Part shown: positions 6,646 to 43,243 of the stretch, piece by piece
How positions within the stretch are numbered: the stretch's first letter is position 1
How the letters are laid out: every line of letters starts with the position of its first letter
DNA from: a virus
Taxonomy: Duplodnaviria > Caudoviricetes
Virus record (IMG/VR): IMGVR_UViG_2880505610_000001
Span: 40,773-104,772 of that record
Length of the DNA: 64,000 bases
Reading direction: 5' to 3' (one strand)
Notes under the pieces: generated by a model
Told to the model about the DNA's origin: nothing
Databases searched by the model: none
Seen by the model: only the letters and a program-made list of their open reading frames with translations
Made by a program: the position numbers and the translations under genes

Positions 6646-6980
6646 GGCGCCGTCCCCTTGCCTCGCAAATAGAGCTGCAGTATCAGCAGCGTCAATGGCG
6701 CCAGAACCGACGTGAACAGGGCCAGCAAGATCATGCGCCGGTCTGCCGAACGCTGCCGCTGGTCGGCGTCGAGACGGGCCACCACATCGGTGATGTCCTT
6801 GGCCAGTTCGTCATGTTCGCGCCTGGCCGTCTCCACATGCGCTTGGTACAGCGGCAGTCCCACCATCTCTCTTGCCAGCGCGTCCAGGCGCTGGCTGAGT
6901 GCCGCGTGACGGTCTCGTAGGTCGTGGCGGAGGTCGGAGATGTTGCGCTGGAGCTCTCCTGGGGTGGGGTCATCGGCCAC
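6642..6980 (-). CDS. Membrane protein (coiled coil plus C-terminal TM), lysis-associated
   Basis: MADDPTPGELQR... with a hydrophobic C-terminus. Confidence 0.75.
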   Translation of the reverse strand: MADDPTPGELQRNISDLRHDLRDRHAALSQRLDALAREMVGLPLYQAHVETARREHDELAKDITDVVARLDADQRQRSADRRMILLALFTSVLAPLTLLILQLYLRGKGTAP

Positions 6981-7010
6981 GCGACCCCCTCATGGTCATC
7001 GTGGGCTCCG

Positions 7011-18614: not shown

Positions 18615-19211
18615 TCAGGACCCTCCGCCGGGCAGCGCCGACGGGTCGATCTTGGAGGTGTGGTACAGCAGGTTCCCGGCCGCGTCCGGGTACACGCTGA
18701 CGGTCACCTCGTAGCCGGTGACCTCGTCCCCCTTGTAGACCACGTCGCCGCGCTCGGAGATCTCCGCCTCCGGCGCGAACATCCGCAGCATCGACTCGCC
18801 GTCGTAGACGTCCCACACCCAGGCACGGCGGTCCGGTGCCGGCGTCGCCGACTCGGCGAACGAGGTGAGCCCGTCTGTATCCGGGGTGACGCCAGCGACC
18901 GGCAGCCGGTACATCAGGCTCTTGACCAGGGGACGCTGCGTCTCCCACAGCGTCATCTGGAACGTCCGAACCGACCCGGTGACGACCTTCCGGAACGGGG
19001 AGGTCTGCCCCCACGCCTTGAACTCCTCGGAGTCCTCGTCGATGGCGTAGGTCAGGCCGTCCTCGGAGATCATGCCCACCGGCATCCACGGCGAGGCCAG
19101 GCTGGTGAATCCGGTCGGCGCGGTCGGGGTCGCGGTACCCAGATCGACGGCCCATGCGCCGCCGTTGATACCGATCATCGCGAGGTCGTCGGACCGCTCA
19201 ATCGTGGGCAT
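18615..19211 (-). CDS. Major tail (tube) protein
   Basis: GMISEDGLT, EFKAWGQ, TFQMTLWET, EISERGDVVYK..EVTGYEVTV..YPD. Confidence 0.9.
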   Translation of the reverse strand: MPTIERSDDLAMIGINGGAWAVDLGTATPTAPTGFTSLASPWMPVGMISEDGLTYAIDEDSEEFKAWGQTSPFRKVVTGSVRTFQMTLWETQRPLVKSLMYRLPVAGVTPDTDGLTSFAESATPAPDRRAWVWDVYDGESMLRMFAPEAEISERGDVVYKGDEVTGYEVTVSVYPDAAGNLLYHTSKIDPSALPGGGS

Positions 19212-19274
19212 AGGGCCCTCCCATGCGAAAGACCCCACCGCCTGGTGGGGCCCTGGTTTCCGATTCGTCTCAGG

Positions 19275-19655
19275 TCAGGTGTGCGCGGACAGCCGGTAGG
19301 TGGCCAGGTAGCGGCACAGATTCGGGTTGGGGTCAGATAGCCAGTACGGGGCCACGTCCACCGACGCGGCGGTGACGACCCCCTCGGGGCGGCGCTGCCC
19401 GATCAGAGTCCACGTGGTGAGGTCCACGACCTGCTGGGCGATCTGCGAGCACAAGGCCCGCTGCGCCTTGAGCGTCCACACCGACACGTCCACCAGCGGG
19501 CGGTCCAGCCGGTATCCGGCGCCGCTGGGCACACGGGCGACCTGGATGACCGGGACGGCCTGCTCCAACGTCGCCGGCAGCTCGGTGGCCGCGCGGTAGC
19601 CGGTCTCGGCCCGGTAGAACGCGACCAGCAACTTCTCGATGTCGGGGTAGGCCAC
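19275..19655 (-). CDS. Tail terminator
   Basis: YPDIEKLLV...ATELPATL...PVIQVARV...DRPLVDVSVW...DPNPNLCRY; position before the tail tube. Confidence 0.8.
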   Translation of the reverse strand: MAYPDIEKLLVAFYRAETGYRAATELPATLEQAVPVIQVARVPSGAGYRLDRPLVDVSVWTLKAQRALCSQIAQQVVDLTTWTLIGQRRPEGVVTAASVDVAPYWLSDPNPNLCRYLATYRLSAHT

Positions 19656-19657
19656 GG

Positions 19658-19978
19658 TCAATCCCCAGCGGCCCGCAGCGCGTTCCGCAGGATGTGCCGC
19701 GCCGGCGTGGTGGAGGTGCCGTACTCGACGAACACCGCGTGCCCGGCAGTGTTGTTGACACGGCCGTAGGCGCGGTCCCGACGGACCCCGCCGCGGGCCC
19801 CAGACGACACCGTGAACGAGTTCTTGTACTCGCCGGACTCCACCGGCGCCGTGGCCTCCGCCACCCATTTGACTCTGTCGGCGCGGCGGCGCATCTCCGC
19901 CTGCATCCACGGGGAGCGGAGCATTACTCCGACGCCACGGTAGGACGCCCGGAACGTGGTCCCCCGCGTACTAGCCAT
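19658..19978 (-). CDS. HK97 gp10-like neck/tail-completion protein
   Basis: APVESGEYKNSF, HAVFVEYGT...HILRNAL. Confidence 0.85.
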   Translation of the reverse strand: MASTRGTTFRASYRGVGVMLRSPWMQAEMRRRADRVKWVAEATAPVESGEYKNSFTVSSGARGGVRRDRAYGRVNNTAGHAVFVEYGTSTTPARHILRNALRAAGD

Positions 19979-20183
19979 CGTCGCCTCCCGCCTGTACCGC
20001 GACCCCGGCGATTCCGCCGATCACCACGAAAGACACCGTCGGGAATGATCTGCGTAGCTGCGCGGTGAACGCCTGCACGTCCTCGGCGGGGATGTCCTCG
20101 GTGAGCGCGATCAGGACCCGATCCCCGGGGCGGAGGACCACCATCGGTGGCACTGAGGCGCCCTGCAGTTCAGGCATCGGCAT
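19971..20183 (-). CDS. Hypothetical protein, 70 aa
   Basis: Coupled ORF in the head-tail cluster (VLRPGDRVLI). Confidence 0.65.
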   Translation of the reverse strand: MPMPELQGASVPPMVVLRPGDRVLIALTEDIPAEDVQAFTAQLRRSFPTVSFVVIGGIAGVAVQAGGDDG

Positions 20184-20192
20184 CTCAGCACC

Positions 20193-20534
20193 TCACCCGG
20201 TGACGCGCGACAGTTCGATCTGCACGCCGCCCTCAGTCCCGGTCAGCGGAGACCGCCACTCCCCCGGGTCACCGTCCACCTCATACAGGACCCCGCGGAC
20301 CCGTGCCCGGTCATGCGGGCGGACATCGGTGCCATAGGGGGCCAGCACATTCAGGCCCTCCAGGACCTGCAGGCGGGCCTGCACGTCCTCCGACGACGTC
20401 CGCGGCCACACCGCGCACCCCGCCACCGCGACCTCCACGTCCGGGCCGGGCACGTCGTTTCCGTAGTCGTCCTGCGTCGGAGGGCCGGGGCGGATGATCG
20501 TGACCGTCTCCCCGAACGGGTAGGGCGGCGGCAC
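20193..20534 (-). CDS. Head-to-tail stopper
   Basis: GETVTIIR..DDYGN...GCAVWP...DRARVRGVLYEVDGDP.EW.SPLTG...RVTG. Confidence 0.85.
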   Translation of the reverse strand: MPPPYPFGETVTIIRPGPPTQDDYGNDVPGPDVEVAVAGCAVWPRTSSEDVQARLQVLEGLNVLAPYGTDVRPHDRARVRGVLYEVDGDPGEWRSPLTGTEGGVQIELSRVTG

Positions 20535-20538
20535 CCGG

Positions 20539-20955
20539 TCACCACCCCGCCTCAAGGTCGACCCAGCCGCCGCGCGGGTCGTCCCGGTCGGGATCCCACT
20601 CCTGCGGCCAGGTCACCTCCGGGTCGGCGTCTGCCGGTGTCGGGTCCACCGTAAACGCCCCACCCCGCCCAGCGAGGCGCTGCAAGGTCCGCCGCTCGTC
20701 CCGGGTCATGTACAGGCCCGCCTGCGGACGCTGCACGCTCACCGGCCCGACCGTCTCGTACGCCACGCCCTGCGGGTTGGCGTACGCCCGGCCGGCGACG
20801 GCCAGCACCACCGCCGACGCCGCCTCCGGAAGCGGGGTGACGATCGACTCTGCCAGCAGGATCGCCTGCTCGATCATCAACTCGGCGCGGGCACCGTCGA
20901 TCTCGGACAGCCCCAGATACAGGGCAAGGTCCTCTGCGGTGACGTCGACCGGCAC
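20539..20955 (-). CDS. Head-to-tail adaptor
   Basis: AVVLAVAGRAYANPQG..YETVGP...GLYMTRDE. Confidence 0.85.
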   Translation of the reverse strand: MPVDVTAEDLALYLGLSEIDGARAELMIEQAILLAESIVTPLPEAASAVVLAVAGRAYANPQGVAYETVGPVSVQRPQAGLYMTRDERRTLQRLAGRGGAFTVDPTPADADPEVTWPQEWDPDRDDPRGGWVDLEAGW

Positions 20956-20959
20956 GAGC

Positions 20960-22117
20960 TCACCCCTTCGACGTGACCGCCTCGACCGCCGTGCACCACT
21001 CCGCCAGGTCCGCGGCCGGGTCCAGTTCCTTCGCCCGGGCCAGGGACCGCTCGGACGCCGCGGCCCACTGCGCGGGGTCGGTGAGCGCCTGCACCGCCTC
21101 CACCCACGCGTCCACGTCACCGCGTTCGGCGAAGATCCCGGCCTCTCCCAGGCATTCGGCGAGACCGGTCGTGGGCGCGGCGACCACCGGGATCCCCGAC
21201 GCCATCGCCTCCACCGCCACCCGGCCCCACGACTCGCTCGCAGACGGGACCAGCAGGATCCGGGTGCGGGCATACACCTCGTCCCGCATCCGCTCGCCCG
21301 GCATGTGCTCGACGACCTCCACGTTCGGCAGACCGCCGCGGCGTTCGATCTGCTGCCCGTAGGCGCCCTTGACGCCCAGGAACCTCAGATCGGGGAGCCG
21401 TTCGGCGACCTGCCAGAACAGGGCCCCGCCCTTGTCGGCGTTGAGGTTGATCAACGTGACGTGGTCGCCCGGAGTGGTGCGGTAGTCGTCGCCCAGTACC
21501 GGCGGGCGAACCACGATCGACTGTTCCGGTCGCAGCGCCGGGGTGTACTCGCAGAAGAACGCCTCGGCCTCCGCCTGCATGTGCAGGCTGTTGTACACCG
21601 CCAGCGACACCGCGCCCCGCCCGATGTTCTTGAAGACCACCGGGGCGGTGTTGTGCGCCAGCGCCACGAACGGGCGTCCCATCCCCCGCGCCAACGCGCC
21701 GGCGGACGGGACGTTCTCATGGTGGGCGATGATCACATCGGCGCTCTTGGCCGCGGCACCGAAGTCCTGCCGGGCCGCGTACGGCACCACGTGCACGCCG
21801 TCGACCTGGTACGGGGCCCGGTCGGGCGAGTACCGCGACAGCCACACCGACACTTCGTGGCCGCGTGCCACCAGCGCCCGCAGCATCGAATGCAGCATCC
21901 ATTCCGACCCGGCGTTGTGCCGGGGCGGGTAGGCGTGGACGCGCGCCACGACGTTCAGCGGCGCCGTGGCCCGGCCGAGCCCCTCGAACACCGACACCGC
22001 CTGCGCCGCTGACGCATCCGGGGTGGCGGTCTTCTTCTTGGTGGTGCCCGGCCGGGAACGCCGCTGAGGCGACGCCCTACGCTGCCGCGGCGACGCGGGA
22101 ACGTCGGTGTCGGTCAC
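20960..22117 (-). CDS. Glycosyltransferase family 4 (GT-B) with basic N-terminal extension
   Basis: HAYPPRHNAGSE, LARGHEV, LINLNADKGG, LLVPSASESWGRVAVEAMASGIPVVA (E-x7-E motif). Confidence 0.92.
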   Translation of the reverse strand: MTDTDVPASPRQRRASPQRRSRPGTTKKKTATPDASAAQAVSVFEGLGRATAPLNVVARVHAYPPRHNAGSEWMLHSMLRALVARGHEVSVWLSRYSPDRAPYQVDGVHVVPYAARQDFGAAAKSADVIIAHHENVPSAGALARGMGRPFVALAHNTAPVVFKNIGRGAVSLAVYNSLHMQAEAEAFFCEYTPALRPEQSIVVRPPVLGDDYRTTPGDHVTLINLNADKGGALFWQVAERLPDLRFLGVKGAYGQQIERRGGLPNVEVVEHMPGERMRDEVYARTRILLVPSASESWGRVAVEAMASGIPVVAAPTTGLAECLGEAGIFAERGDVDAWVEAVQALTDPAQWAAASERSLARAKELDPAADLAEWCTAVEAVTSKG

Positions 22118-23070
22118 GAACCGACACCGTCGGCGGTGTAGGTCACGAACGCGTCGGCGTCGCCCATGACGAAGCCGTAGAACGCCTCCGCCAGCAGCAG
22201 CACCAGGTTCTCCTGGAACGCCGAGTGGACGCCGCCTTCCTCGTCCACGTAGGTCGCCTCGCTGGAGATGCGGACGGTGATGTCCATCCCGATGCCGTAG
22301 GCGGCCTGCGACCAGTCGCCGCCGACCGCGCGAAGCCCAGTGTCGGCGCTGGAGGACTGGCGGCGCTGCTTGCCCGACACCCCACGCGAGTACGCCAGCG
22401 GCTCTCCGATCAGGGTGCCGCCCATCGCCTGGTTCAGGCCCGGGGTGGTGGTGTCGACGAAGATCGGCCGGCCGTTGGCGTCGGTCGCCAGCATCAGCTT
22501 CGGCTTCAGCCGCGGGTCAGCGACGGTGCCGGTGTAGTCCCAGTCGTCGTCGACGACCATGGCCATGCCGTTGACCAGGTCCGCCCACAGGCCGCCGGAG
22601 GTCTGCGCCGCGGTGTCGAGTTCGACGGTGTTGGTGGTGGAGGCCAGGTAGTCGCCGAACGGGCCGGCCGCGCCCTTCATCGTCTTGCCGTGGATCGCGG
22701 CGTGGTCGAAGGCCCGCGCGAACGCGGTCGGCAGGTCCCGCTGCAGCTGCGTCCACAGGCCGGCGGCGTTGGTCCGCACGACCTCTTCCGACACCGGGAT
22801 CAGCACCGCGATCTTCTTCGGCGTCATCTGCTTGACGTCGATCCCGCCGCTGGACAACGGCTTGCGCGCCCCGGAGCCGACCCAGTCGGCGGTGGGCACG
22901 TCCAGTGGGATCGGAATGGAGGTGTTGGCGTCGATGGACAGCGGCGCGCGCTGCGCCAGCGACATGATCGCCGACTGCTCCACCGACTTCTCGAAGATGG
23001 GACCCGCCAGCGTCCGCGGCAGGAGGTTGCTGTCGATATCCGACAGCAGGATCGGGTCGGTGGTGGCCAC
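22114..23070 (-). CDS. Major capsid protein (HK97 fold)
   Basis: LLPRTLAGPIFE, ADWVG..KP, PKKIAVLIPVSEE, DANGRPIF, GDWSQ, SAFQENLVLLLAE. Confidence 0.95.
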   Translation of the reverse strand: MATTDPILLSDIDSNLLPRTLAGPIFEKSVEQSAIMSLAQRAPLSIDANTSIPIPLDVPTADWVGSGARKPLSSGGIDVKQMTPKKIAVLIPVSEEVVRTNAAGLWTQLQRDLPTAFARAFDHAAIHGKTMKGAAGPFGDYLASTTNTVELDTAAQTSGGLWADLVNGMAMVVDDDWDYTGTVADPRLKPKLMLATDANGRPIFVDTTTPGLNQAMGGTLIGEPLAYSRGVSGKQRRQSSSADTGLRAVGGDWSQAAYGIGMDITVRISSEATYVDEEGGVHSAFQENLVLLLAEAFYGFVMGDADAFVTYTADGVGS

Positions 23071-23084
23071 CGGTCACCCCTCTC

Positions 23085-23735
23085 TCAGCGGCCCTTGCTC
23101 TTCAGCAGCCGCGAATTGACGAACCCCGCGAACTCGTCCGCGGGGTCCTTGGCTCTGGTCTGGTTGGCGCCCGATGCCTGCGTCCGGTCCGGCGCCGGGC
23201 GGCGCCGCTCCGGTTCGGCAGGCTTGAGCTTGCCGAGATGCGGTTTGCGCTCGAGCAGGTCTGCGAGGTCGGCCTTGATCGCGTCCGCGTCGATGTCACC
23301 GACGTCGGTCACGTAGGCGTTCAGGTCCAGGTGCGCCTCGGGGTCGGTCGGGTCCGCGAACGCGGCAGCCGCCAGGGCTCGCACCTCGCTCTTGACCGCC
23401 CGCTTCCGCAGCGCGCCGATCTCCCTCTCCCGCTCGTCCAGCCGGGCCTGGAGCCGTTCGGCCTCCGTCTTCTGCGCGTCCTCGAGCTCCTTGGCTTTGG
23501 CCGCGAGCGGCTCGAGGTCCTTCAGGCGCTTGCGGAGGTTCGCGGCCTCCTGGTTGGCCTTGTGGATCTTCGCCTTGTACTGGGCCTCGTTGAACGGCTG
23601 CTCGGCCGGCGGGCCCTCCTGGGGCTTGGTGGCCGTGGTCTCATCGCCGTTGTCGGTGGCCTCGTCCTGCTTCTCCACCGCGCCCTCGTCGGCGCTGGTG
23701 GGCTCGGTGCTGTTCTCGGCAGCCTCATCGGGCAT
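23085..23735 (-). CDS. Capsid scaffolding protein
   Basis: Acidic N-terminus, coiled coil EAANLRKRLK...AQKTEAER, LLERKPHL; directly upstream of the capsid gene. Confidence 0.88.
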   Translation of the reverse strand: MPDEAAENSTEPTSADEGAVEKQDEATDNGDETTATKPQEGPPAEQPFNEAQYKAKIHKANQEAANLRKRLKDLEPLAAKAKELEDAQKTEAERLQARLDEREREIGALRKRAVKSEVRALAAAAFADPTDPEAHLDLNAYVTDVGDIDADAIKADLADLLERKPHLGKLKPAEPERRRPAPDRTQASGANQTRAKDPADEFAGFVNSRLLKSKGR

Positions 23736-23740
23736 TCGGG

Positions 23741-24199
23741 TTAACCCTCCAGGGGTTGGGACAGGGAAAGCTCCCGCTCCAGGCGGGAAGTCGAAGGCCG
23801 GTAGCGGTCCCACCACCGGTCGATCACAGGGCCCGTCCACGCAGGCCGGCCAGCATCGGCGGCCCGGGACTTGGCCTCATCCAGGGGAGTCGCCAGCACC
23901 ACCACCTCGGTGGCGCCGAGCGCCGCAGCGTGCCGGGTGCGACGTTCCGGCTCGGGCATCGTGCGGATCACCCACGCCGTGCCGGTCTGCATCCGGGACA
24001 CGAGGGTCTCCTCCGCTGCGCGGACACGACGCGCCCGGCCACGAATGTGTTCCGGGTGGTTGTGGGGGTCTGGGGACCCCAGCCGCCGGCAGATGGCGTC
24101 CAGGTCCACGACCCGGTCACCTGATGCGGCGTGCTCGGCGACCCACGTCGACTTCCCGGCAGCAGGCGGGCCGCACACCAACACGACCCTGCGGCTCAT
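23741..24199 (-). CDS. P-loop kinase/AAA_33-like protein
   Basis: VVLVCGPPAAGKSTWV Walker A, VVDLDAI. Confidence 0.8.
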   Translation of the reverse strand: MSRRVVLVCGPPAAGKSTWVAEHAASGDRVVDLDAICRRLGSPDPHNHPEHIRGRARRVRAAEETLVSRMQTGTAWVIRTMPEPERRTRHAAALGATEVVVLATPLDEAKSRAADAGRPAWTGPVIDRWWDRYRPSTSRLERELSLSQPLEG

Positions 24200-25098
24200 C
24201 CACCCGCCCGCAGGATCCGCGAGAGATTCGCGATCGTGTCACCACGCATCGCCCGGGCCCGCTCGTACTGGCGCTGCCACAACTTGATCTCCGGTTGCGG
24301 CTGCCATTCCTCGCCCTCGAAGTACGGGGCCGCCCAGCACCGGCAATGGTCGTGGTACTTGAACTCGCCAGCCCCCTGGAACCGGGCGTTGGTGCGGCGG
24401 CCCGCGGTCCGCTCGTCCTTGTACACCGGCCCGCGGATCGACATCACGCGGCAGAACGCGCACGCGTCCGCCGCGGCCATCCGCGCGACCCCGACCGCCT
24501 GCCGATCCTCGGCCACGGCGTCCACGATCGCGCCACGCCCCACGTCAGTGACCAGCCGGGACGCGATCCCGTCCACCTTCGTCCGCGTCACGCGGACCTG
24601 CCCGGCCACATCACCTCGCGCCGGCGCAGGCTCCGGATCGGAGAGGTCCTCCTCGACCCGGTCCTCGCCCACGCCGGCGAGGGCCTCCTCGTCCAGATTC
24701 GACAGGTCCGCGGACTCTTCCTCACGGGCGATCTCAGCGAGCAGCCGTTCCACCTCGGCAGCCGAATCCAGCAACTCCTGGTCCCAGAAGTTCCTCGTCG
24801 CCCACCGCAACGACTCCTCCACCTGCCCCGGGTCAGGTTCCCGCAGCAGCGGCGAAGGTCGCCTCCCCGGCACGCCCGCGGCGTCACGCTCAAGGTCGTA
24901 GTAGTCCAACGCCATCGCCCCGGACGCCTCCGCGTACCGTGCGATGACAGCCCGGACCGCTGCGGCCCACCGCGGCATCGTCCGCGCCAGCCGCCGCGAG
25001 TCCAGCAGCGTCCACGTCCCGGCCAGCTCACGCAGCATCAACACGATCAGGCCGCTTTGCGCGGCCTGCTGCTCACGCGACCTGGTCGGCGTCGCCAC
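24196..25098 (-). CDS. MuF-like minor capsid / capsid maturation protein
   Basis: ACAFCRVMSIRGPVY and YHDHCRCWAAP motifs; follows the portal gene. Confidence 0.85.
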   Translation of the reverse strand: MATPTRSREQQAAQSGLIVLMLRELAGTWTLLDSRRLARTMPRWAAAVRAVIARYAEASGAMALDYYDLERDAAGVPGRRPSPLLREPDPGQVEESLRWATRNFWDQELLDSAAEVERLLAEIAREEESADLSNLDEEALAGVGEDRVEEDLSDPEPAPARGDVAGQVRVTRTKVDGIASRLVTDVGRGAIVDAVAEDRQAVGVARMAAADACAFCRVMSIRGPVYKDERTAGRRTNARFQGAGEFKYHDHCRCWAAPYFEGEEWQPQPEIKLWQRQYERARAMRGDTIANLSRILRAGG

Positions 25099-26494
25099 CC
25101 GACACCTCTACGGCGCGCTGCCGGCCGAGCCGTTCCCCGATCCGGGCGAGCTGGGCACGGCCCTGCGCGCGCTGCCGGTCCGACCGGACCCGCTGACGCT
25201 GCGCCTCCGACAGCCCGACCATCTCCAGCGCCACCTCCGAGTCCGCAGGGATGATGCCGGCCTGCACGAGCTTCACCGCCGCGTCGGTCTGCGCCGCCAT
25301 CGTCGGCGTCGCCGGGTTCCGCCACACCGTCTCCAGCTTGCGGGCCCGGTCCGGCACCTCGCCCCGCCAGATCAGCAGCGCCAGCCGCAGCACCTGCGCC
25401 CACGGAGTGCTCAGCATCGCCTGCTTACGCTCAGCGCGTTTCACCAGCTGCGCCTCCGTCGAGCGGATCGCGTCGGCCGAGGCAGGGTTGTCAGTGGTGT
25501 AGCCCAGGTAATGCGGCGGCAGGCCAAGCTGCGTCGCCATGATCCGCGCGTACAGGTCAACGATCTTCGTATACGCCGACGGGTCATACGCGGCGAACGT
25601 ACCGACCTGCGGGATCTCCCCGTCCTCGTCCCGCTCCAGAGCCAGCACACGGCCGATGTAGGTCTCCCACGCCGACTTGGCGTTCCCCTCAGCGTCCTGA
25701 AACGCCGACTCGCTGGCGCCGAGGATGTACCGCTGAGGTGCGCCGTAGAACTCCCGGGCGACCTCCATGCCCAGCAGCGTCCGGCACGCCGCATCGGTGA
25801 TCCCCATCACCGCAGAGTTGATCTCCGACTTCCCGACCCGCTCCGCGGCCCGCGGCCGGTTAGCGAACCGCACCACCGGGACCATGCCCAGCTCGTGGGC
25901 GTCGCGGCTGATGACTTCCCACCCGCCAGTGTCCGACTGCACCACGTGGATCGTCTGATCCGGCAGGTACAGCACCGCCGCCTGAGCATCCTCGATCTTG
26001 TACAGCCGCAGCGCCGACCGCACCGCACGCAACCGGGCGTCGTAGTCCACGGTCATGTCCATCGGTGACTCGACCGAGATGACCGGCGGTGCCTCATCCT
26101 CCTCACCGGACCCGACCGCGGCGTAGGACCGGCCGTAGATGAACGAGTCCAGGTGCGCGAGCTGCGCCTCGGTGAGCAGGTCGTTGGCCTGCACCACCTC
26201 TTCCAGCTCGTCGGAGGCGTCCGGCTCACCCGCATACCGCCACGTCTCAATGTCCAGACGCTGCTCGAGCGCGTCCACACCGATCTGCGGCCACCCGATC
26301 ACCGTGTGAAGCCCCTGCAACTGCGGCGGAATGCTGATCTTCAAGTCACGGATGACCTGCTCGCCGTTGTAGTAGCAGTCCCGCAACTCCAGCGGGAACC
26401 GTGCGGTGACCAGGTCCTGGCGGAGTACGTCGATCAGCTGCGTCTCATCATCGGTGAGGTTCACCAGCGGCAGCTCCGGAATCACCGCGGTCAC
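25073..26494 (-). CDS. Portal protein (SPP1 gp6-like)
   Basis: YYNGEQ, VIGWPQIGVDAL, IYGRSY, VPVVRFANR, GKSEI, EFYGAPQRY, NPASADAI. Confidence 0.95.
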   Translation of the reverse strand: MTAVIPELPLVNLTDDETQLIDVLRQDLVTARFPLELRDCYYNGEQVIRDLKISIPPQLQGLHTVIGWPQIGVDALEQRLDIETWRYAGEPDASDELEEVVQANDLLTEAQLAHLDSFIYGRSYAAVGSGEEDEAPPVISVESPMDMTVDYDARLRAVRSALRLYKIEDAQAAVLYLPDQTIHVVQSDTGGWEVISRDAHELGMVPVVRFANRPRAAERVGKSEINSAVMGITDAACRTLLGMEVAREFYGAPQRYILGASESAFQDAEGNAKSAWETYIGRVLALERDEDGEIPQVGTFAAYDPSAYTKIVDLYARIMATQLGLPPHYLGYTTDNPASADAIRSTEAQLVKRAERKQAMLSTPWAQVLRLALLIWRGEVPDRARKLETVWRNPATPTMAAQTDAAVKLVQAGIIPADSEVALEMVGLSEAQRQRVRSDRQRAQGRAQLARIGERLGRQRAVEVSGGDADQVA

Positions 26495-28146
26495 GACAGC
26501 ACCACCGCCCGCCCTCTACCGCGCCGGCCCACGCCCTTCGCCACCGCATCCAGCCGGGCCTGCCACGCCAACGTCGCCGCGACCGCCGCGTCGATCTTCC
26601 GCCGCGAATCCGGGTGCTCCTTAGCGATCTGCAGCCCCGACCGGGACACCCGCCGCCGCGCGTTCAACACGTGCCGCGTCAACGCGTACGAGCCGTCGTG
26701 GGTGAGCTCACCGTTCACCACAGCCGCGTGGAACTGCTCCAGCGCACGCACGACCAACTGGGTTCGGTTCATCCACCACTCGATCGGATGCTGCTGCGAC
26801 GCCCTCACCCGCAACCGGCGCCCGTAGGTGTACTCCCATTCGGCGACGAACGAGCGCCAGTCCGCGGCCGGGTCAGCGTAGAACCCGACGACCTTGTACC
26901 TGGAGAACGCCTTCCGGACCGCGGCGTTGACCTCCATGACCGGCACCCACCAGTCCTTGCCCGCCAGGCCGTCCGGCTGCTCCCACACCGCGATCTCGAA
27001 CACGAACCCGTCCGACACCCGGCATCCGATCAGCGCAGTAGCGTCGGTCACCCCGCGGTTGCGGTGCCTCGAGCCGTCAAAGCCCAACGTGATCCGTTCC
27101 CCATCGGCAACGGCCTCACCGGGCGACGCGCACGACGCCCATTCCGGTTGAGACAGCCACGCATCCGAGGCGTGCGTGATCTGATTCAGGAAGTCCGCTC
27201 GAGCCGTCTGCGGATCGGTTCCCAGATCCCAGATGTCGGCGACGATACGGTCCAGCGGCGACCAGCCCGGCTGGCACGGCGGCTCATGCAGCACGCACCC
27301 GTCCGGGTGGTCGGCGGAGTCTCCGTAGGCGAGCCGGAGCCCTGCCATCAACGACTCGCGGTCATCCAGATCCGTCTCGGGAGGCGCCTCGCGATGGTCG
27401 TACAGCAGACCCCCGTCCTTCGCCTTCCCCTCCAGGATGTTCTTGTAGAACTCGGCGGACTGCTCCGCCACCGACTCCTCGCCCGGCGTGAACGCGTTCG
27501 GCGACTCGATAGTCGCGCCGCCCAGCTTCGCCGCGTTGATCCGCATCACCTCGGCCAGCCGGACCCCGCCGTTCGACGGAACCCACTCCTCCGTCTGGTC
27601 GAGAATCGCGAAGACCGCCTTGTTGCCCTTCACAGACCGGGCCGACGAGGTGACGGGCTCGATCCGCCCCCGCGGCAGGTTCACGAAGGTGTCCAGCGGC
27701 TCCAGCCGCGGGTACGCGTCGATCAGCGCATCCGAGTCCAGCATCTCCAGCAGCGGAGCCCACGAGTTCTTCGTCTGGGCCTCCGACACTGCGGCGACCT
27801 GAACAAACGGGGTCCGGATCTGCGACCACGGCTTCCCCACCGGCTGGCCATCGGCGTCCCAGCCATCCGGCACAACCGGCGCCAACGCCTCAGCAATCGC
27901 CAACGCGGCCAAGAACGGCGACTTACCCCACCCTCGCGGGCGGCTGATAACCCCGCGGCGGTGCTTGCGCCGGCCCGTGTGCGGATCGATCTCAAACCAG
28001 CGCAGGATGAACTGGGCCTGCTCCAGCGTCGGCACGAACGGCTCGAACTCGGCGCGGTCCGGCGCCGCCAGATACTCGATGATCCAGTCGAGGATCAGCG
28101 GACCCAGCGTCGGCCGCTCCCCTGGCCGGCTCGGACGCCACGGCAC
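26491..28146 (-). CDS. Terminase large subunit
   Basis: Walker A RPRGWGKS, ILDQTEEW, nuclease LGFDGS...DATAL, KIDAAVA. Confidence 0.95.
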   Translation of the reverse strand: MPWRPSRPGERPTLGPLILDWIIEYLAAPDRAEFEPFVPTLEQAQFILRWFEIDPHTGRRKHRRGVISRPRGWGKSPFLAALAIAEALAPVVPDGWDADGQPVGKPWSQIRTPFVQVAAVSEAQTKNSWAPLLEMLDSDALIDAYPRLEPLDTFVNLPRGRIEPVTSSARSVKGNKAVFAILDQTEEWVPSNGGVRLAEVMRINAAKLGGATIESPNAFTPGEESVAEQSAEFYKNILEGKAKDGGLLYDHREAPPETDLDDRESLMAGLRLAYGDSADHPDGCVLHEPPCQPGWSPLDRIVADIWDLGTDPQTARADFLNQITHASDAWLSQPEWASCASPGEAVADGERITLGFDGSRHRNRGVTDATALIGCRVSDGFVFEIAVWEQPDGLAGKDWWVPVMEVNAAVRKAFSRYKVVGFYADPAADWRSFVAEWEYTYGRRLRVRASQQHPIEWWMNRTQLVVRALEQFHAAVVNGELTHDGSYALTRHVLNARRRVSRSGLQIAKEHPDSRRKIDAAVAATLAWQARLDAVAKGVGRRGRGRAVVLS

Positions 28147-28149
28147 CGG

Positions 28150-28608
28150 CTACTCCTGGCCCGATGCGCGGCTCGACCGGTCCGGAAGCAGACGCAGATC
28201 GCCGTACCGCTGTACCGAGGCCGGCTGCTTCGCTGCCCGCTTCTCGTCCTTCTCATCGGCGTCCGCGAACACCATCCGCAGACGGGCCCGGTCCTCAGGA
28301 GTCGCACCGTACTTCGCGACCCGCAGCCGAACCTCCGCCGCCAGCGTCCACTGCCCCTTCGACCACATCGCGTGGTGCATCAGCGCCGTGTCCAACAGGA
28401 ACGCCCAGTCGGTCTCAGTGAACGTCTCAGCCTGAGCCGACCGGCCCCACATCGCCCACCACGCCTGCGTCCGCGGATGCCACTCCACGTCCTCGGGCAG
28501 CTCGGGCTGCTCTGCACGCACGAACCGCAGCACTGTCTGCGCGACCGGGTCCTTGTTCGCTCGGGCCCGCCGGTTCGGGTCCTTGGGAGCAGGCCCACGT
28601 CCAGCCAC
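28150..28608 (-). CDS. Terminase small subunit
   Basis: MAGRGPAPKD...WHPRTQAWW...TDWAFLLDTA...AEVRLRVAKYGATPEDRARLR. Confidence 0.92.
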   Translation of the reverse strand: MAGRGPAPKDPNRRARANKDPVAQTVLRFVRAEQPELPEDVEWHPRTQAWWAMWGRSAQAETFTETDWAFLLDTALMHHAMWSKGQWTLAAEVRLRVAKYGATPEDRARLRMVFADADEKDEKRAAKQPASVQRYGDLRLLPDRSSRASGQE

Positions 28609-28639
28609 GGAGAGTCACCACCTCTCCGCTCAGTCCTTG

Positions 28640-28740
28640 ATCATCCAAGCCCCAGACCCGTAGCCAGGGGGAGCCTCAATACGTGGCCGATTCCCTGACC
28701 ATGATCATCGGGGGTGGCCCCCACCCTTGGTGACGCTGTG
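28640..28740 (-). other. Probable cos/packaging-initiation region
   Basis: Non-coding gap between HNH and terS containing GGGTGGGGGCCACCCCC...TACGGGTCTGGG on the minus strand; position typical of HNH-associated cos phages. Confidence 0.45.
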
Positions 28741-29089
28741 TGACCGGCGGCCTGGGGTGGTTGATCATGGTTGGTGACGTCCACCCGGCCCTGCGAGGGG
28801 CGGTCACGGCGAGGTCACTCGGCTCAGCCACGTAGCGATCACGGCGCTGCTGAGAGGCTCGCGATCACCGTTGCGTGCGAGCAGATGGTCATCGGCGTTG
28901 GCTGGTGTGGCTGCTGCCCTGTGGCCGGTGCCCGCGTGTGGGTGGTGCCGTGCCGGCTGCTCTGCACCCTCACGCCTGTCGGGTGTCCCCCTGTGCGTGC
29001 ACCCCGAGCGTGTGGTGCTCACGGACCTGGCCGTTCGGGGTGGCCTGCTGCGGTGAGGGGTCAACCTTGGCTCGCTGCGTTCGCGGTCC

Positions 29090-29272
29090 TCAGCGTCGTG
29101 GTCGTCCTGCCTTGCGGGTCCCCTTGCGTACGGGGAGCCGGCGGTACCGGACCTTGCGGGGGCCCGGTGTCTCCCTAGCCTTGCGCCTTGCCCAGGGCTG
29201 CTTGGTGGCGAAGGCCCAGCGCCATTGCTTGCGGCTGACGAACCCCTTCTTCTGCCCGCCGCGCTTGGCCAT
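29090..29272 (-). CDS. Small very basic protein
   Basis: GFVSRKQWRWAFATKQPWAR; RBS GGAGGTGAAGG. Confidence 0.75.
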   Translation of the reverse strand: MAKRGGQKKGFVSRKQWRWAFATKQPWARRKARETPGPRKVRYRRLPVRKGTRKAGRPRR

Positions 29273-29278
29273 GTGCCT

Positions 29279-29590
29279 TCACCTCCGGAGGCCGGGGTGT
29301 GGTTCGGGTGGGCGGTGCCGCTTGGGCCGGCGGGCCTGTGCTGCCTTACCGCCCTCGCTGGAGGACTTGTAGACGTGGCAGCGTTGCACCGTGCGGCGTC
29401 CATGGATGGGGGCTAGCGCTTCGATCCGGTGGTCATCGCCAGCCACGATGTGGTCGATCTCGTCCGCGCCGGGCTGGCCGCACACGTGGCAGATGGTGCC
29501 GTGGATCCGGAACGCCTCGGTACGGCGGTCGGCCCAGTCTGCTGGCAGTCGGGCTGCGCGGTCCGAGCCAGCCCATTGTCCGTTCGGCAC
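29279..29590 (-). CDS. HNH endonuclease (terminase-associated)
   Basis: WAGSDR..RLPADW, CHVC, EIDHI, CH.YKSSSEG, PPEPHPGL. Confidence 0.9.
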   Translation of the reverse strand: MPNGQWAGSDRAARLPADWADRRTEAFRIHGTICHVCGQPGADEIDHIVAGDDHRIEALAPIHGRRTVQRCHVYKSSSEGGKAAQARRPKRHRPPEPHPGLRR

Positions 29591-29609
29591 CGCCCCTCCA
29601 AGATCTTTC

Positions 29610-30341
29610 TTATCCGCCGGTGGACGATCGTGAGCTGTCCCAGGTCAGCGCGTTGGCGTTCTCTGTGACGAGGACGCGCATAGCCGTCGGGTCGCCCTCT
29701 GCCTGGAGGTAGCGGTAGCAGCGCGCGGCATTCGCCTCGTACTGGTTACCCGTCTTCACTGCGGACTCGTGATGCAGCGCGTACACGCGGCCCTCATGGC
29801 GGACGGGTTCGGTGCCGAGGAGAGTCTTGTGCGCGGCGAGCCACGCGGCGTCCTCGAAGCCCCAGCCTCGGAAGTGTTCGTCTTGGCCACCGTGGACCCA
29901 CCAGGTGGCGGGGTTGAGGACGTAGATTCCGGAGCAGGCGCCGTCTACGACCAGGTGGTTGCAGTCCTCGAGCGGGGCGCCAGCGAGGAACTGGTCGGTG
30001 CCGTCGCGGCGGAGGGAGCGGTACTGGGTGTAGGGCAGGTGCACGTACCGGGACGTGGTGGCGTCCTGGACCGCCTGCTGCAGTGGCTCAGGCTCGGGCA
30101 GGGTGTCCGCGTCAGCGAGGACCACCACCTCGTAGCCGCCGGCCTCGGCCATGCGAACGGCCTTGTTCCGGCAGGCGGCGAGACAGAACGCTTCGTGCTC
30201 GGTGTCGACGTCCACTATGTGCGCCTCAGGGAGCAGCACCCGGTAGGTGTCCACCGTCAGGTCGTGGGCGTAGACGCGGTGTGGCTGTGGGCGCCACGGT
30301 ATGCCGACCAGCACGCGGCACGTGCGTTCAGCGAGGCCCAC
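29610..30341 (-). CDS. GT-A glycosyltransferase with a Glyco_transf_7C-like (galactosyltransferase-type) motif
   Basis: VGIPWR, CRNKAV, VLADAD (DxD), GGQDEHFRGWGFED, ALHH; GTG start at 30341 after GGAGGAGGGG. Confidence 0.88.
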   Translation of the reverse strand: MGLAERTCRVLVGIPWRPQPHRVYAHDLTVDTYRVLLPEAHIVDVDTEHEAFCLAACRNKAVRMAEAGGYEVVVLADADTLPEPEPLQQAVQDATTSRYVHLPYTQYRSLRRDGTDQFLAGAPLEDCNHLVVDGACSGIYVLNPATWWVHGGQDEHFRGWGFEDAAWLAAHKTLLGTEPVRHEGRVYALHHESAVKTGNQYEANAARCYRYLQAEGDPTAMRVLVTENANALTWDSSRSSTGG

Positions 30342-30762
30342 GCCCCTCCTCCGTGATCTTGTGCCACTGCTCGGTGGTCGGAACCGGCTCGGCACGCCCG
30401 GAGGTGTTGATCGCGTATGCAAGGCCGGACAGGTTTCCGACGATCGCGCCCAGCGTCTCGGTGAGGCGGTCCACGCGTTCGCGTTCGGCGTCGTAGTCGC
30501 GGCGGAGCGCCCGTGTGTCCTCAGCGCCGTTGTAGTGGCGCGCGAGTGCCTCCAGAAGTGCGTGGGCCTCGCTGTCTCTGAGCCGGAGCGTGGGGTCGAT
30601 GTTGGGGTCGGGATGGTCGGGCAGCTCTTCCCAGCCGAGGATGGTGTTGCTGCCGCCCTCAACGATCCGCAGGATGTGCCGGGTCCGCCCTTCCGATTCC
30701 TGGACCAGGGTGATCGCAAGGGTCATGCCTGCGATGTCTTCTCTGATGTAGGCGCGGATCAT
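30328..30762 (-). CDS. Hypothetical protein
   Basis: MIRAYIRED...ALRRDYDAERERVDRL; ATGA coupling. Confidence 0.75.
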   Translation of the reverse strand: MIRAYIREDIAGMTLAITLVQESEGRTRHILRIVEGGSNTILGWEELPDHPDPNIDPTLRLRDSEAHALLEALARHYNGAEDTRALRRDYDAERERVDRLTETLGAIVGNLSGLAYAINTSGRAEPVPTTEQWHKITEEGRGPR

Positions 30763-31025
30763 CGCTGCGCAGCCTTTTCCACGGTGCCCTGAACGTGCTC
30801 CACGACGCGGCGGAGGTCGCCCTCGTCCCACTCAGGCCTCAGGTGGATCCGGACTTCGCCGATCGACGGGGTGGTGTCGTCGAGGTCGGCTTGGACCTCA
30901 ACGTCCTCGATCAGTGAGGGGGCGGCGCTTTCGACGAGTTGGCCGGCCTCGTGGTCGCTGAAGCCTGCAGCGCAGAGTTCCTCGCGGTAGGCGGATAGTC
31001 TCTGCGCGGTCGTGAGGTTACTCAT
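30759..31025 (-). CDS. Hypothetical protein
   Basis: 88 aa, RBS GAAAGG, coupled to the next gene. Confidence 0.7.
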   Translation of the reverse strand: MSNLTTAQRLSAYREELCAAGFSDHEAGQLVESAAPSLIEDVEVQADLDDTTPSIGEVRIHLRPEWDEGDLRRVVEHVQGTVEKAAQR

Positions 31026-31260
31026 GGGAGAGCCTTTCGAGCGGAGTGGGTGAGGCCCGGCCTGTGTCCAGCGCCACCCACTCCAGAGGGAGCGGACACA
31101 GGCCGGGAGTATGTAACGATTGAATAACTCCCTGGAGCGGTTCGCGTCGGTTCACCAATGTTCAGGGAGTTTCAGGGCGTCTCCACACGTCTCAGGACGT
31201 CACATTTGAAGACTCCGCACCCGCAAATGACCAGCCAGTCATCATGCGATAGTCCAGGTC

Positions 31261-31740
31261 ATGCATGGATGGAACGAGCGCCTGGCAGCGGGCGCAGCGC
31301 ACGAGGAGCGAGTTGCCCAAGCCCTCATCGACCGCGGATGGGAAGTCGCTCCATGGGGCCAGGGCGTCTTGCCGCCGGGTATCCAAGAAGCCCTGAGTCG
31401 TAGCGCCTCGAAGTGGCGCCACTTCCCTGACCTTGTCGCCGCCCGTGAAGGCGAAATCATCACCGTGGACGCCAAAGACCGTATGTGGTCCACTCAGTCC
31501 GGCCGGTATGCAGTCAGCCGAGACTGCGTGAGTTTCGGCCTCCAGTTCATCGCCGCTTTCGGGGTGCCTGTTTTCTACGTGTTCGGCAACCTCAGGGTGC
31601 TATCGCCCGTCGAAGTTCAGGCCTACGGGTCCCTTGGCCCTCGCATCCGCGGGGGCGCCTACTTCCTTGTGCCGGAACGGCTCGGGCATCACTTCGACGA
31701 CGTGTTCGGGGTTGTCTACCATCACAATGAAGCCGCGTGA
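31261..31740 (+). CDS. PD-(D/E)xK nuclease-fold protein (moron on the opposite strand)
   Basis: G..HEERVA..L..RGW ... FPDLV ... VDAK; lower-GC upstream region. Confidence 0.65.
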   Translation: MHGWNERLAAGAAHEERVAQALIDRGWEVAPWGQGVLPPGIQEALSRSASKWRHFPDLVAAREGEIITVDAKDRMWSTQSGRYAVSRDCVSFGLQFIAAFGVPVFYVFGNLRVLSPVEVQAYGSLGPRIRGGAYFLVPERLGHHFDDVFGVVYHHNEAA

Positions 31741-32439
31741 TCAATAGCCCGAGCCGACTCGTGCGTCGCCGATGTGCTCGACGCGTGGAGGGTCGGTGCG
31801 CCGGCCCCAGTACGCGGCACGAGCGTGGGGGTTCTGGAAAAGGTGCCGGCCGAAGCGGGACTCGGACCAGTCGCCCTCTGGCCAGTCGTGCTCAAGGGTT
31901 CGGCGTGGGATCAGACACGGGTTGCCGGTGAACACGGCGCGGTGCTCGATCCACCACTGGCGGCCGTTCGTGCACTCAGTGAACCGCTGGCCCTGTGCCT
32001 CCAGAGCCTCGATTAGGCCGCCGTGCTCGACCTCATTCGTGAACCAGGGCTGCCTGAGCAGCGCCATCTGCATCAGGTCACGTCGGGCGTCCAGAACCTC
32101 GGCGAGCTCGTCGAGGTCCACGTCCTCAGTGAGGACGAAATCGTCCTCCCAGAACGCGAACGCGGGCTCGTCCCAGTGGCGGGCCAACGCCCACACTGCC
32201 TGCATCGCCCGCCAGTACCCGTGCGGGGCCGGAAGGTGGAGGACCTTGGTGTCCCAGGGACCGCCCACGTACTCGTCCTCGAGCCACTGGCCGTAGACGT
32301 CGTCGCCGGAGTCGTCCACGATCACCATGCTGCTCACGCCGGTCAGGTGGGCGATGGCGGACGGGATCGTCTTAGCGATGCAGTCGGGCCGGCCGTTGGT
32401 CAGGCAGATGATCGGGACGGGCATGGAGCTCCGATCCAT
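31741..32439 (-). CDS. Glycosyltransferase, GT-A/family 2-like
   Basis: TNGRPD, VIVDDSG, FWEDDF (xDD), VEHIG. Confidence 0.82.
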   Translation of the reverse strand: MDRSSMPVPIICLTNGRPDCIAKTIPSAIAHLTGVSSMVIVDDSGDDVYGQWLEDEYVGGPWDTKVLHLPAPHGYWRAMQAVWALARHWDEPAFAFWEDDFVLTEDVDLDELAEVLDARRDLMQMALLRQPWFTNEVEHGGLIEALEAQGQRFTECTNGRQWWIEHRAVFTGNPCLIPRRTLEHDWPEGDWSESRFGRHLFQNPHARAAYWGRRTDPPRVEHIGDARVGSGY

Positions 32440-32478
32440 CGGTCGTGGCCCGGGCGACGCGGGTGGAGCTGGGTGACG

Positions 32479-33165
32479 TCACATCAGGACGGGTCGTTCG
32501 TAGCCCCACTTGGTGATCCACGTCTTGTGGTCGCGGTCGGTCTGCTCAGACAGGACCGGGTCCGCGCGGGTTTGTACATCTGGGGCACGGTGTTCCACGC
32601 GGACGCCGGGCACGAGGAGCGACCCGCCGGCTTGACGGCTTTCCCAATCGATCGTGTCGTCGCCGAACCACCACACGAAGTCTTCGTCGGCGCGGATGCC
32701 CGCCTCACCGCGGAGCATGAAGCAGTACCCGCAGATCCGCTCCTGGACCAGTGTCGGCTGTGCCGCGGTGTGCAGCATTCGTTGGCCGACGCCGAACTGG
32801 TCCGGGTACGCGCACACCGCGGTCGTGGCGCGCATTGCGGCCGACAACGTGACCACCAGTTCGTCCGGTGCGACGATGTCGTCGTTGACGACGAGGACGT
32901 TCCAGGCGCCCCAGCCGTTGGTCTCGGCGGTTCGGGCGACTTCGTCGATGCCGAGGTTCCACAGGCGGGAAATGTTCGGTGGGTACTCGGCGTGCCGGAT
33001 GATCCGCAGGTCCGAGCTCAGGCCCGGGAACGCCGAGGTCGGCGGGTTCGAGCCGTTGTCGACGATGAGGATGCCGTGGACTTGTCCGTCCAGGGAGTTC
33101 ACGCAGTCGGCGAGGAACTCCGGCCGGTTCTTGGTCGGTATGACGGCGAGCGTCGGCGCAGTCAT
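32479..33165 (-). CDS. Glycosyltransferase family 2
   Basis: VIPTKNR, LIVDNGS, NISRLWNLG, VVNDD, GYCFMLR, DEDFVWWFGD. Confidence 0.9.
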   Translation of the reverse strand: MTAPTLAVIPTKNRPEFLADCVNSLDGQVHGILIVDNGSNPPTSAFPGLSSDLRIIRHAEYPPNISRLWNLGIDEVARTAETNGWGAWNVLVVNDDIVAPDELVVTLSAAMRATTAVCAYPDQFGVGQRMLHTAAQPTLVQERICGYCFMLRGEAGIRADEDFVWWFGDDTIDWESRQAGGSLLVPGVRVEHRAPDVQTRADPVLSEQTDRDHKTWITKWGYERPVLM

Positions 33166-33674
33166 GGCGTCTTCTTCGCCCATGCGTACAGGTCGCCGGG
33201 CGGGTAGGCGTACTCCAGCCCGAACGAGCGCGGGAACGTGTCGGCGAGCGCCGCGGCCAGTTCGGCAGGCTGGACGTTGCAGTAGTGCTCGCCCGGCTCA
33301 GGCCACGGGCCTCCGCTCATACCATGCGGCGGGCGCCGGTCCGAGGCGCACGTGACGATCAGCAGGCCGCCGGGCGCGAGTGCGCGTTCGGCGGTGGCGA
33401 TGATCGCCGGCCAGCCTTTCACGTGCTCGAACACCTCGGTGCACAGTACGAGGTCGTAGGTGCGGTCGGGGACCCAGGTGCGGGCGTCGGCGACCACGTC
33501 GACGCCATTCCCCGGGGTGGAGTCGACGGCCGTCCAGTCGTGGGTGGCGAACATGCCGCGGAGGCTGCCGTTGACGTTGCGGCCTCCCAGGTCGCACGCG
33601 GCAAGGGTGGCGTGGGTGAGGAGGCCGTGCGTGTCTGCGAGCCGCTTCACTGCGGCGCGGGCCTCATCATGCAT
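33162..33674 (-). CDS. Class I SAM-dependent methyltransferase (probably a sugar O-methyltransferase)
   Basis: DLGGRNVNGS, GNGVDVVAD, YDLVLCTEVFEH, LAPGGLLIVT; ATGA-coupled to the GT2 gene. Confidence 0.88.
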   Translation of the reverse strand: MHDEARAAVKRLADTHGLLTHATLAACDLGGRNVNGSLRGMFATHDWTAVDSTPGNGVDVVADARTWVPDRTYDLVLCTEVFEHVKGWPAIIATAERALAPGGLLIVTCASDRRPPHGMSGGPWPEPGEHYCNVQPAELAAALADTFPRSFGLEYAYPPGDLYAWAKKTP

Positions 33675-43082: not shown

Positions 43083-43243
43083 TGGGCACCTGGCCTGTGG
43101 TCGTCGCAGCGCCACCCGCACGCGTACAGCAGGGCGTCCTTGCCGCACTTGCGGGAGGTGTCGGAACAGTCAGCGAGGGCGCCGCACCGGTACAGCTCGA
43201 TGCGAGGGCGGGGCGGGGGCGCCGGCATGTTCGAGGCGGTCAT
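43079..43243 (-). CDS. Small Zn-finger protein
   Basis: CGKDALLYACGWRCDDHRP. Confidence 0.6.
   Translation of the reverse strand: MTASNMPAPPPRPRIELYRCGALADCSDTSRKCGKDALLYACGWRCDDHRPGAQ

Follow-up and report, generated by a model that had tools for sequence, protein, structure and literature searches.

A capsid-coupled GT4 glycosyltransferase and terminal serines on capsid and tail tube point to probable virion O-glycosylation in an actinomycete prophage

We analyzed a 64,000-nucleotide stretch of viral DNA (hereafter the window; positions 40,773 to 104,772 of IMG/VR record IMGVR_UViG_2880505610_000001), which belongs to the 8.99-Mb single-contig genome of a high-GC soil actinomycete. Nearly all of the window is occupied by a complete temperate siphophage on the minus strand, the closest capsid relatives of which are found in Actinomadura, Spirillospora and Streptosporangium. 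This prophage encodes four glycosyltransferases (GTs) and a methyltransferase (MTase), and the gene for one of the GTs, a GT4 enzyme, overlaps the major capsid gene. Sequence comparison suggests, at a probability that we put near 0.68, that the phage possesses a virion O-glycosylation system of the same kind as those of Che8 and Corndog, built on a different core enzyme, the GT4. Che8 and Corndog are reported to be glycosylated mycobacteriophages (PMC11256854, PMC12363180, both of which cite Freeman et al. 2023).

The five enzymes and the two proposed substrates are encoded as follows.

33162-33674, minus strand: S-adenosylmethionine (SAM)-dependent MTase, 170 amino acids (aa); Methyltransf_23 7e-12, phrog_32762 1.6e-18
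32479-33165, minus strand: GT2a, a GT-A (GT2) glycosyltransferase, 228 aa; PF00535 3.6e-5
31741-32439, minus strand: GT2b, a GT-A glycosyltransferase, 232 aa; PF00535 4.7e-6, phrog_3047 'galactosyl transferase' 5e-22
29610-30341, minus strand: a GT-A glycosyltransferase, 243 aa (below, GT-A 29610); phrog_1721 2.6e-25, weak in Pfam (Glyco_tranf_2_2, 1e-3)
22114-23070, minus strand: major capsid protein, 318 aa, HK97 fold; PF05065 7e-26
20960-22117, minus strand: GT4 (GT-B, retaining-type) glycosyltransferase, 385 aa; phrog_26352 1e-141
18615-19238, minus strand: tail tube protein, 207 aa; PF25681 3e-12, phrog_117 1.7e-38

An earlier reading of this DNA from its letters alone (the sequence-only reading) had named the five enzymes and proposed that they build a glycan on a C-terminal Ser of capsid and tail tube. 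Pfam and PHROG scans confirmed that all five are real open reading frames (ORFs) with domain support. The couplings that it described are also present: the capsid stop codon overlaps the GTG start of the GT4 gene in GTGA, and the MTase stop overlaps the GT2a start in ATGA. As it had further stated, no evident transmembrane segment is found, in that no long hydrophobic stretch is visible by eye in any of the five enzymes.

The capsid ends in TADGVGS and the tail tube in ALPGGGS, just as first described, which would place the proposed acceptors at Ser318 (codon 22117-22119) and Ser207 (codon 18618-18620). The accompanying statement that other proteins do not end this way holds for Gly-Ser, which is confined to these two among the 36 listed ORF products, but not for Ser itself, since five of the 36 end in Ser, namely the capsid, the tail tube, the large terminase subunit (TerL), an ORF in the chaperone region and the lysin. 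An AlphaFold2 (AF2) model of the capsid (predicted local distance difference test score, pLDDT, 89.8) has the HK97 fold, with a last strand at residues 308-312 followed by a six-residue coil tail, and its closest structural match is the Bxb1 capsid. An exposed C-terminus is plausible, because the HK97-fold T7 capsid protein and the lambda tail tube protein both display what is fused to their C-termini on the outside of the particle.

The GT4 begins with a basic leader of about 45 aa and contains two Rossmann-like GT4 domains, matched by PF13439 and PF13579 at residues 70-160 and by PF13692 and PF00534 at residues 244-345; its EX7E motif reads ESWGRVAVE. Profile scans with Pfam also returned Glyco_trans_1_4 (9e-19), the Glyco_transf_4 N-domain (2.8e-8) and PF20706, 'GT4 in conflict systems' (1e-10). 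Its best PDB sequence match is 3c48 (1.3e-9), which we take to be corynebacterial MshA. The two enzymes share the GT-B fold and the EX7E motif, but their similarity is confined to the C-terminal nucleotide-sugar domain, and the acceptor of the 3c48 enzyme is a small molecule, as opposed to the protein terminus proposed for the window GT4. A further GT4 homolog (37% identical), with an N-terminal hydrophobic segment, occurs at 5803-8632 of a 153-kb low-GC IMG/VR contig (L087), where it adjoins two GT-like ORFs and an Hsp70-like gene; this contig appears to come from a giant virus, not a phage.

To place these features in a wider context, relatives were scanned in one genome per prokaryote species, which yielded 44 loci with capsids 70-90% identical to the window capsid, mostly in Streptomyces but also in Streptosporangium, Nonomuraea, Sphaerisporangium, Embleya and Actinomadura. 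A GT4 homolog, 53-77% identical, directly follows the capsid gene in all 44. The capsids end in Ser (39 loci), Thr (4) or Ser-Ala (1), and of the 41 loci that extend to the tail tube, 40 encode one that ends in Ser. The sole exception is Actinomadura sp. CNU-125 (L045, 14440-14520), in which a run of G directly before the conserved TCC TGA lacks one base relative to the window and 17 extra codons are read; either a frameshift or an error of assembly accounts for this read-through at the predicted acceptor codon. In the tail tube, G, L, N, S, T, A, M or V stands ahead of the final Ser, and the constrained feature is therefore Ser, not Gly-Ser. The emphasis that the sequence-only reading placed on Gly-Ser thus has to be shifted to a terminal Ser or, rarely, Thr. 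Similarly, among the best 120 capsid clusters (about 75% identity or more) from a collection of 5.8 billion proteins, 106 end in S, six in T and eight in SA. Thr alone replaces the terminal Ser, and the other variant keeps the Ser and adds Ala, which points to a function of the hydroxyl.

The association of GT4 and terminal Ser extends to further loci in which the GT4 is adjacent to the capsid gene, several of them with more distant capsids.

P0123, capsid 59% identical to that of the window: capsid end GGGS, tail tube end GPGS
P0128, capsid 43% identical: capsid end GQS
L059: capsid end GGGS
L088, capsid 26% identical: capsid end YGS
L076, capsid 77% identical (P0056, among the 120 close clusters): tail tube end YTGS
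L077, capsid 84% identical (P0016, among the 120 close clusters): tail tube end GGGS

A candidate tail-tube-like ORF in L088 ends in Thr (PAAT); its identity is unconfirmed and it is left out of the counts. Judged from these loci, the GT4 is the conserved core enzyme, universal in the family of the window phage. INPHARED contains no isolated phage with a capsid more than 37% identical to the window capsid, and this therefore appears to be a large prophage family without a cultured representative there.

As controls, 401 Actinomycetes genomes were sampled, giving 17 capsid-family matches, and a distant set of 90 full-length capsid homologs (about 30-60% identity; representatives at 50% clustering) was collected. 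Of the relatives without the GT4, P0132, P0138, P0139 and P0140 have no GT within 10 kb on either side, and the nine loci on the second and third lines below belong to genomes that lack a GT4 ortholog at E<=1e-12.

P0132, P0138, P0139, P0140, capsids 37-41% identical: capsid ends A, K, V, A; tail tube ends A, A, A, A
L058, L062, L063, L064, L067, L069: capsid ends A, P, A, I, V, A
L061, L066, L068: capsid ends S
D29, capsid about 30% identical: capsid end GGGEG, tail tube end GGGA
Rothia phage Spartoi, capsid 37% identical: capsid end I, tail tube end T

Two additional capsids, P0134 and P0137, end in Ser and lie on short contigs with no adjacent GT4. In all, 12 of the GT4-less capsids examined have ends other than Ser and five end in Ser, and none of the six GT4-less tail tubes that could be read does so (all end in A or T). 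Thus, where the GT4 is present, the capsid ends in Ser or Thr in all loci but one and the tail tube in Ser in all but one of those where it was read, whereas in its absence roughly one capsid in four to one in three has a terminal Ser. The sequence-only reading had called for a comparison of GT presence with a terminal Gly-Ser. Ser is indeed kept with the GT4 and the six tail tubes read from loci without it lack Ser, but the retained feature is not Gly-Ser, and the five GT4-less capsids that end in Ser depart from the pattern. A GT4-bearing capsid at 26% identity keeps its Ser whereas GT4-less capsids at 37-41% do not, and the pattern is thus not simply one clade's inheritance.

Two further observations were made among the capsid relatives. 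The capsids of L063-L066 (G213:C29, G395:C163, G305:C60 and G417:C475), 403-456 aa in length, align with the family profile as two segments (about 1-248 and 231-311), an arrangement that implies insertion of a domain of about 80-130 residues. In L051 (3739-6216), a GT4-less relative, an 825-aa protein with Phage_min_cap2 and ADP-ribosyltransferase domains (PF01129, PF03496) is encoded two positions downstream of the capsid gene, and a different enzyme here occupies roughly the same head-module region as the GT4 elsewhere.

The same protein ends are found in the mycobacteriophages in which glycosylation was established. In Che8, the capsid gp6 ends in NKTGS and the major tail protein gp11 in YSDGS, and no other listed structural protein ends in Ser; in Corndog, the capsid gp41 ends in PLVGS and the tail protein gp49 in IKGDS. 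The capsid and tail-tube proteins of Che8-type phages reportedly carry O-linked glycans at the C-terminus, in work by Freeman et al. 2023 (Cell Host Microbe 31:1216) that concerns gp108-gp110 of Che8, and Myrna is a third glycosylated mycobacteriophage. The core proposal of the sequence-only reading, that phage enzymes glycosylate a C-terminal Ser, is strongly supported by this comparison, which now takes in the Che8 and Corndog ends and some 50 GT4 loci with a terminal Ser or Thr that lapses without the GT4.

Che8 resembles the window phage in being a temperate actinobacteriophage, in the Gly-Ser ends of its capsid and tail tube, and in a cluster of soluble GTs and methyltransferase activity just upstream of HNH/terminase. 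The two also share a GT-A enzyme, as Che8 gp109 matches phrog_1721 (9e-114), the PHROG of GT-A 29610; Corndog gp37 matches GT-A 29610 as well (BLASTP, 4e-8). In contrast to Che8, which has no GT4, the window phage has a capsid-coupled GT-B GT4 and no detected homolog of gp110 or gp108, its capsid belongs to another HK97 lineage (Bxb1/D29-like), and its host is a Streptosporangiales-type actinomycete rather than a mycobacterium. Corndog (cluster O) likewise has a methyltransferase and GTs (gp35-gp38) embedded in its head module, and the ends in question are VGS and GDS, but it is lytic, has a prolate head and lacks a GT4, and its GT block is placed between the portal and protease genes, not downstream of the capsid gene. 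BLASTP searches with the window enzymes found no significant match to Che8 gp108 or gp110 or to Corndog gp35, gp36 or gp38. Two respects in which the sequence-only reading saw the window as an extension of known systems do not survive this comparison. Che8-type phages are themselves temperate, and a methyltransferase is already part of the known kit, because Che8 gp108 is a GT-methyltransferase fusion and Corndog gp35, presumably a methyltransferase, has a C-terminal motif in common with the MTase half of gp108.

Two phages outside the window family bear on the pairing of GT and terminal Ser. In the Streptomyces phage TurkishDelight, gp20 is a tandem double GT4 of 678 aa (phrog_26352, 38% identical to the window GT4) encoded between the capsid and major tail genes, and both of these proteins end in Ser (GSTS and CVAS); the genome is 94 kb, the 575-aa capsid is unrelated, and gp20 is annotated only as 'glycosyltransferase'. 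Conversely, within the Che8 capsid family, the capsid of Brevibacterium phage AGM3 (52% identical) ends in YTAV and its tail protein in VAGV; AGM3 has no PF00535 match, and Brevibacterium is not among the organisms listed with gp110 matches. By this comparison the two phages appear to be independent replications of the pairing.

Several points weigh against the proposal that the window phage glycosylates its virions through the GT4. The gp110/gp38 family (phrog_854), with 726 phage records for the gp110 family, has been called essential (PMC12363180), and no window GT matches phrog_854 at E<=1e-3. The loci that carry the GT4 are largely one clade, and because of this the counts are not independent; they are tallies of termini and GTs made by hand from single translations. 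Ser also ends 21 of the 90 distant capsid homologs (69 end otherwise), and because L061 and L066, whose capsids end in Ser, show no nearby GT by Pfam, a terminal Ser does not by itself predict a GT. The AF2 model does not establish that the capsid C-terminus faces outward, and the Che8 acceptor site is taken as reported in the abstract of Freeman et al. 2023.

From the genes, domains, motifs and couplings described above, and from the conservation of the terminal Ser and its co-occurrence with the GT4, we infer an acceptor residue, an order of enzymes, the sugars and a part for the accessory cassette. Late in infection, the capsid and GT4 genes would be translated as a coupled pair, with the GT4 delivered together with capsid subunits. 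This soluble enzyme, the proposed priming enzyme of the virion glycan, would take a sugar off a host nucleotide-sugar and attach it to the hydroxyl of the final Ser, which on both capsid and tail tube would form the end of a short flexible tail. In the window prophage and its Streptosporangiales-type relatives, GT2b and GT-A 29610 would probably then extend the sugar to an oligosaccharide, and the MTase-GT2a pair (32479-33674), a cassette specific to the window prophage, may attach one more sugar and methylate it.

The sequence-only reading had treated the five enzymes as one set, and the relatives break this set up: it is the modularity of the enzymes among them that leads us to read the GT4 as primer, the two GT-As as extenders and the MTase-GT2a pair as accessory. 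The three GT-A proteins all contain DxD-type motifs (IVDNGS and VVNDDI in GT2a; VDDSGD and WEDDF in GT2b; DAD and GWGFED in GT-A 29610), although GT2a has no PHROG match and a PDB sequence search with all three returned zero matches. The initial label 'GT7C-like' for GT-A 29610 is only loosely right, in that its PHROG match supports a GT-A enzyme and Pfam is weak. GT2b and GT-A 29610, probably glycan extenders to judge by their distribution, are confined to Streptosporangiales-type relatives: GT2b homologs (71% identical) are found in Actinomadura sp. CNU-125 and two IMG/VR proviruses, and GT-A 29610 homologs (66-68% identical) in the four closest relatives. By contrast, searches at E<=1e-8 detected neither the MTase nor GT2a in the closest relatives, though these keep the GT4, GT2b and GT-A 29610, and the pair looks like a recently acquired accessory module of the window prophage. 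At the other extreme, a Streptomyces relative has the GT4 alone within 10 kb on either side of the capsid gene, besides an epimerase-type gene at the edge of the locus. This latter gene (L076, 1-754), of the NAD-dependent epimerase/GDP-mannose-dehydratase type, lies about 10 kb upstream of capsid and GT4 among small phage-like genes and may be a phage-borne nucleotide-sugar supply.

The distribution of these enzymes also bears on an alternative that we consider unlikely, namely that function is split, with the GT4 acting on the virion and a part or the whole of the upstream set, above all the MTase-GT2a pair, acting on phage DNA, another protein residue or a host envelope polymer. The absence of the pair from close relatives and the ability of Streptomyces relatives to manage with a nearby GT4 alone are what such a split would look like, and the window prophage does carry C5 and N6/N4 DNA methylases. 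Moreover, the sole close GT2a homolog in IMG/VR (77% identical) lies on contig L090 (1714-5047) in a cassette of a Methyltransf_23 MTase, a 2-oxoglutarate (2OG)-Fe(II) oxygenase (PF13640), the GT2a homolog and an N6_N4 DNA methylase. This cassette could serve to hydroxylate and glycosylate protein or DNA, and because of the company that GT2a keeps there the substrate of the pair is uncertain. Neither a base hydroxymethylase nor a TET/JBP dioxygenase was found among the 40-odd window ORFs scanned, some small ORFs lying outside the scan. PF13640, however, is of the prolyl-hydroxylase rather than the TET/JBP type, and no oxygenase or hydroxymethylase is seen adjoining the cassette in the window. 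The MTase-GT2a cassette also comes first in the minus-strand gene run that holds the other GTs and terminase, its two genes are translationally coupled, and a methyltransferase domain belongs to the Che8 glycosylation cluster (gp108), with its motif recurring in Corndog gp35. Action of the pair on the virion glycan is thus plausible but unproven.

It is considerably less probable that the GTs act off the virion altogether, on the host envelope (in lysogenic conversion, superinfection exclusion or as an aid to lysis), on phage DNA or on host defense molecules, with the terminal Ser kept for assembly. There are well-known phage GTs that act on O-antigen or DNA, but the genes here belong to the late structural operon, away from the repressor/integrase end, and their products show no evident membrane segments by eye, unlike Gtr-type converters. 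Likewise, the PF20706 match of the GT4 and the terminal Ser of some GT-less capsids would fit an off-virion role, but the GT4 is fixed to the capsid stop codon in every relative, Ser ends both proteins only where a GT is present, and the experimentally glycosylated Che8 and Corndog have the same endings. The notion that the GT genes are morons that now do nothing and that the Ser ends were inherited within one prophage clade appears very improbable: ancestry explains part of the pattern, as most GT4-bearing loci are related (70-90% capsid identity), but the catalytic motifs are intact, an uninterrupted GT4 gene keeps its position at capsid identities as low as 26-43%, Ser persists at the terminus while the residues ahead of it vary freely, and the unrelated TurkishDelight has the same pairing.

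The remaining genes are those of a temperate siphophage. Late genes run in the order MTase, GT2a, GT2b, GT-A, small terminase subunit (TerS), TerL, portal, VG15/MuF-like, AAA_33, scaffold, capsid, GT4, connectors, tail tube, chaperones and tape measure, and finish with a Dit-like protein and a lysin. The head and packaging module spans 23085 to 28608 and the head-tail connector block, recognized by phrog_501 (1e-27) and phrog_5 (2e-13), spans 19658 to 20555. The prophage also encodes a Gp3-like recombination directionality factor, DnaB and an Rnl1-type RNA ligase.

62693 to beyond 64000, minus strand: serine integrase
61522-62052, minus strand: Cro/CI-type repressor
40013-41692 and 43240-44454, minus strand: C5-cytosine and N6/N4 DNA methylases, early genes
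28150-28608, minus strand: TerS, head/packaging module
26491-28146, minus strand: TerL, head/packaging module
25073-26494, minus strand: portal, head/packaging module
24196-25098, minus strand: VG15/MuF-like protein, head/packaging module
23741-24199, minus strand: AAA_33 P-loop kinase-like gene (PF13671, 1.5e-12), between the VG15/MuF-like and scaffold genes
23085-23840, minus strand: scaffold, head/packaging module
20193-20555, minus strand: head closure connector, connector block
19658-19978, minus strand: neck/tail completion connector, connector block
14030-17722, minus strand: tape measure, late genes
4598-5647, minus strand: CHAP/PG-binding lysin, late genes

The AAA_33 kinase-like gene might have a link to sugar or protein phosphorylation. 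In a Spirillospora relative (L077, 8869-9987), its product corresponds to a protein of 372 aa that carries this domain too.

To our knowledge, experiments have demonstrated glycosylation of virions by the phage's own enzymes in no more than a few mycobacteriophages. Such glycosylation has already been inferred from GT and MTase genes in other actinobacteriophages (PMC13313380). As far as sequences can tell, what is new here are a capsid-coupled GT4 core enzyme, a very large uncultured family borne by Streptomyces and Streptosporangiales, and a terminal Ser or Thr on both proteins that tracks the enzyme. A broader proposal, to which we give slightly less than an even chance, is that the capsid-coupled GT4 represents an unrecognized class of protein O-glycosyltransferase that reads a free C-terminal Ser or Thr. 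Under this proposal, a terminal Ser on both proteins together with an adjacent GT would be a portable predictive code that marks this very large prophage family, and add-on enzymes (the GT-A pair and the MTase-GT2a pair) would set glycan length and capping.

If virion glycosylation through the GT4 is true of this family, it would reach prophages that are frequent among Streptomyces and the antibiotic producers related to it, and the core enzyme would be a GT4 and not a gp110-type GT-A. It would also raise the question of what purpose a glycan coat serves in soil phages that never meet antibodies. A single GT4 with a short C-terminal tag would constitute a minimal system, which might serve for site-specific glyco-tagging of proteins or phage particles. 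Finally, a terminal Ser or Thr on capsid and tail tube with a GT encoded nearby could predict glycosylated virions across phage databases.

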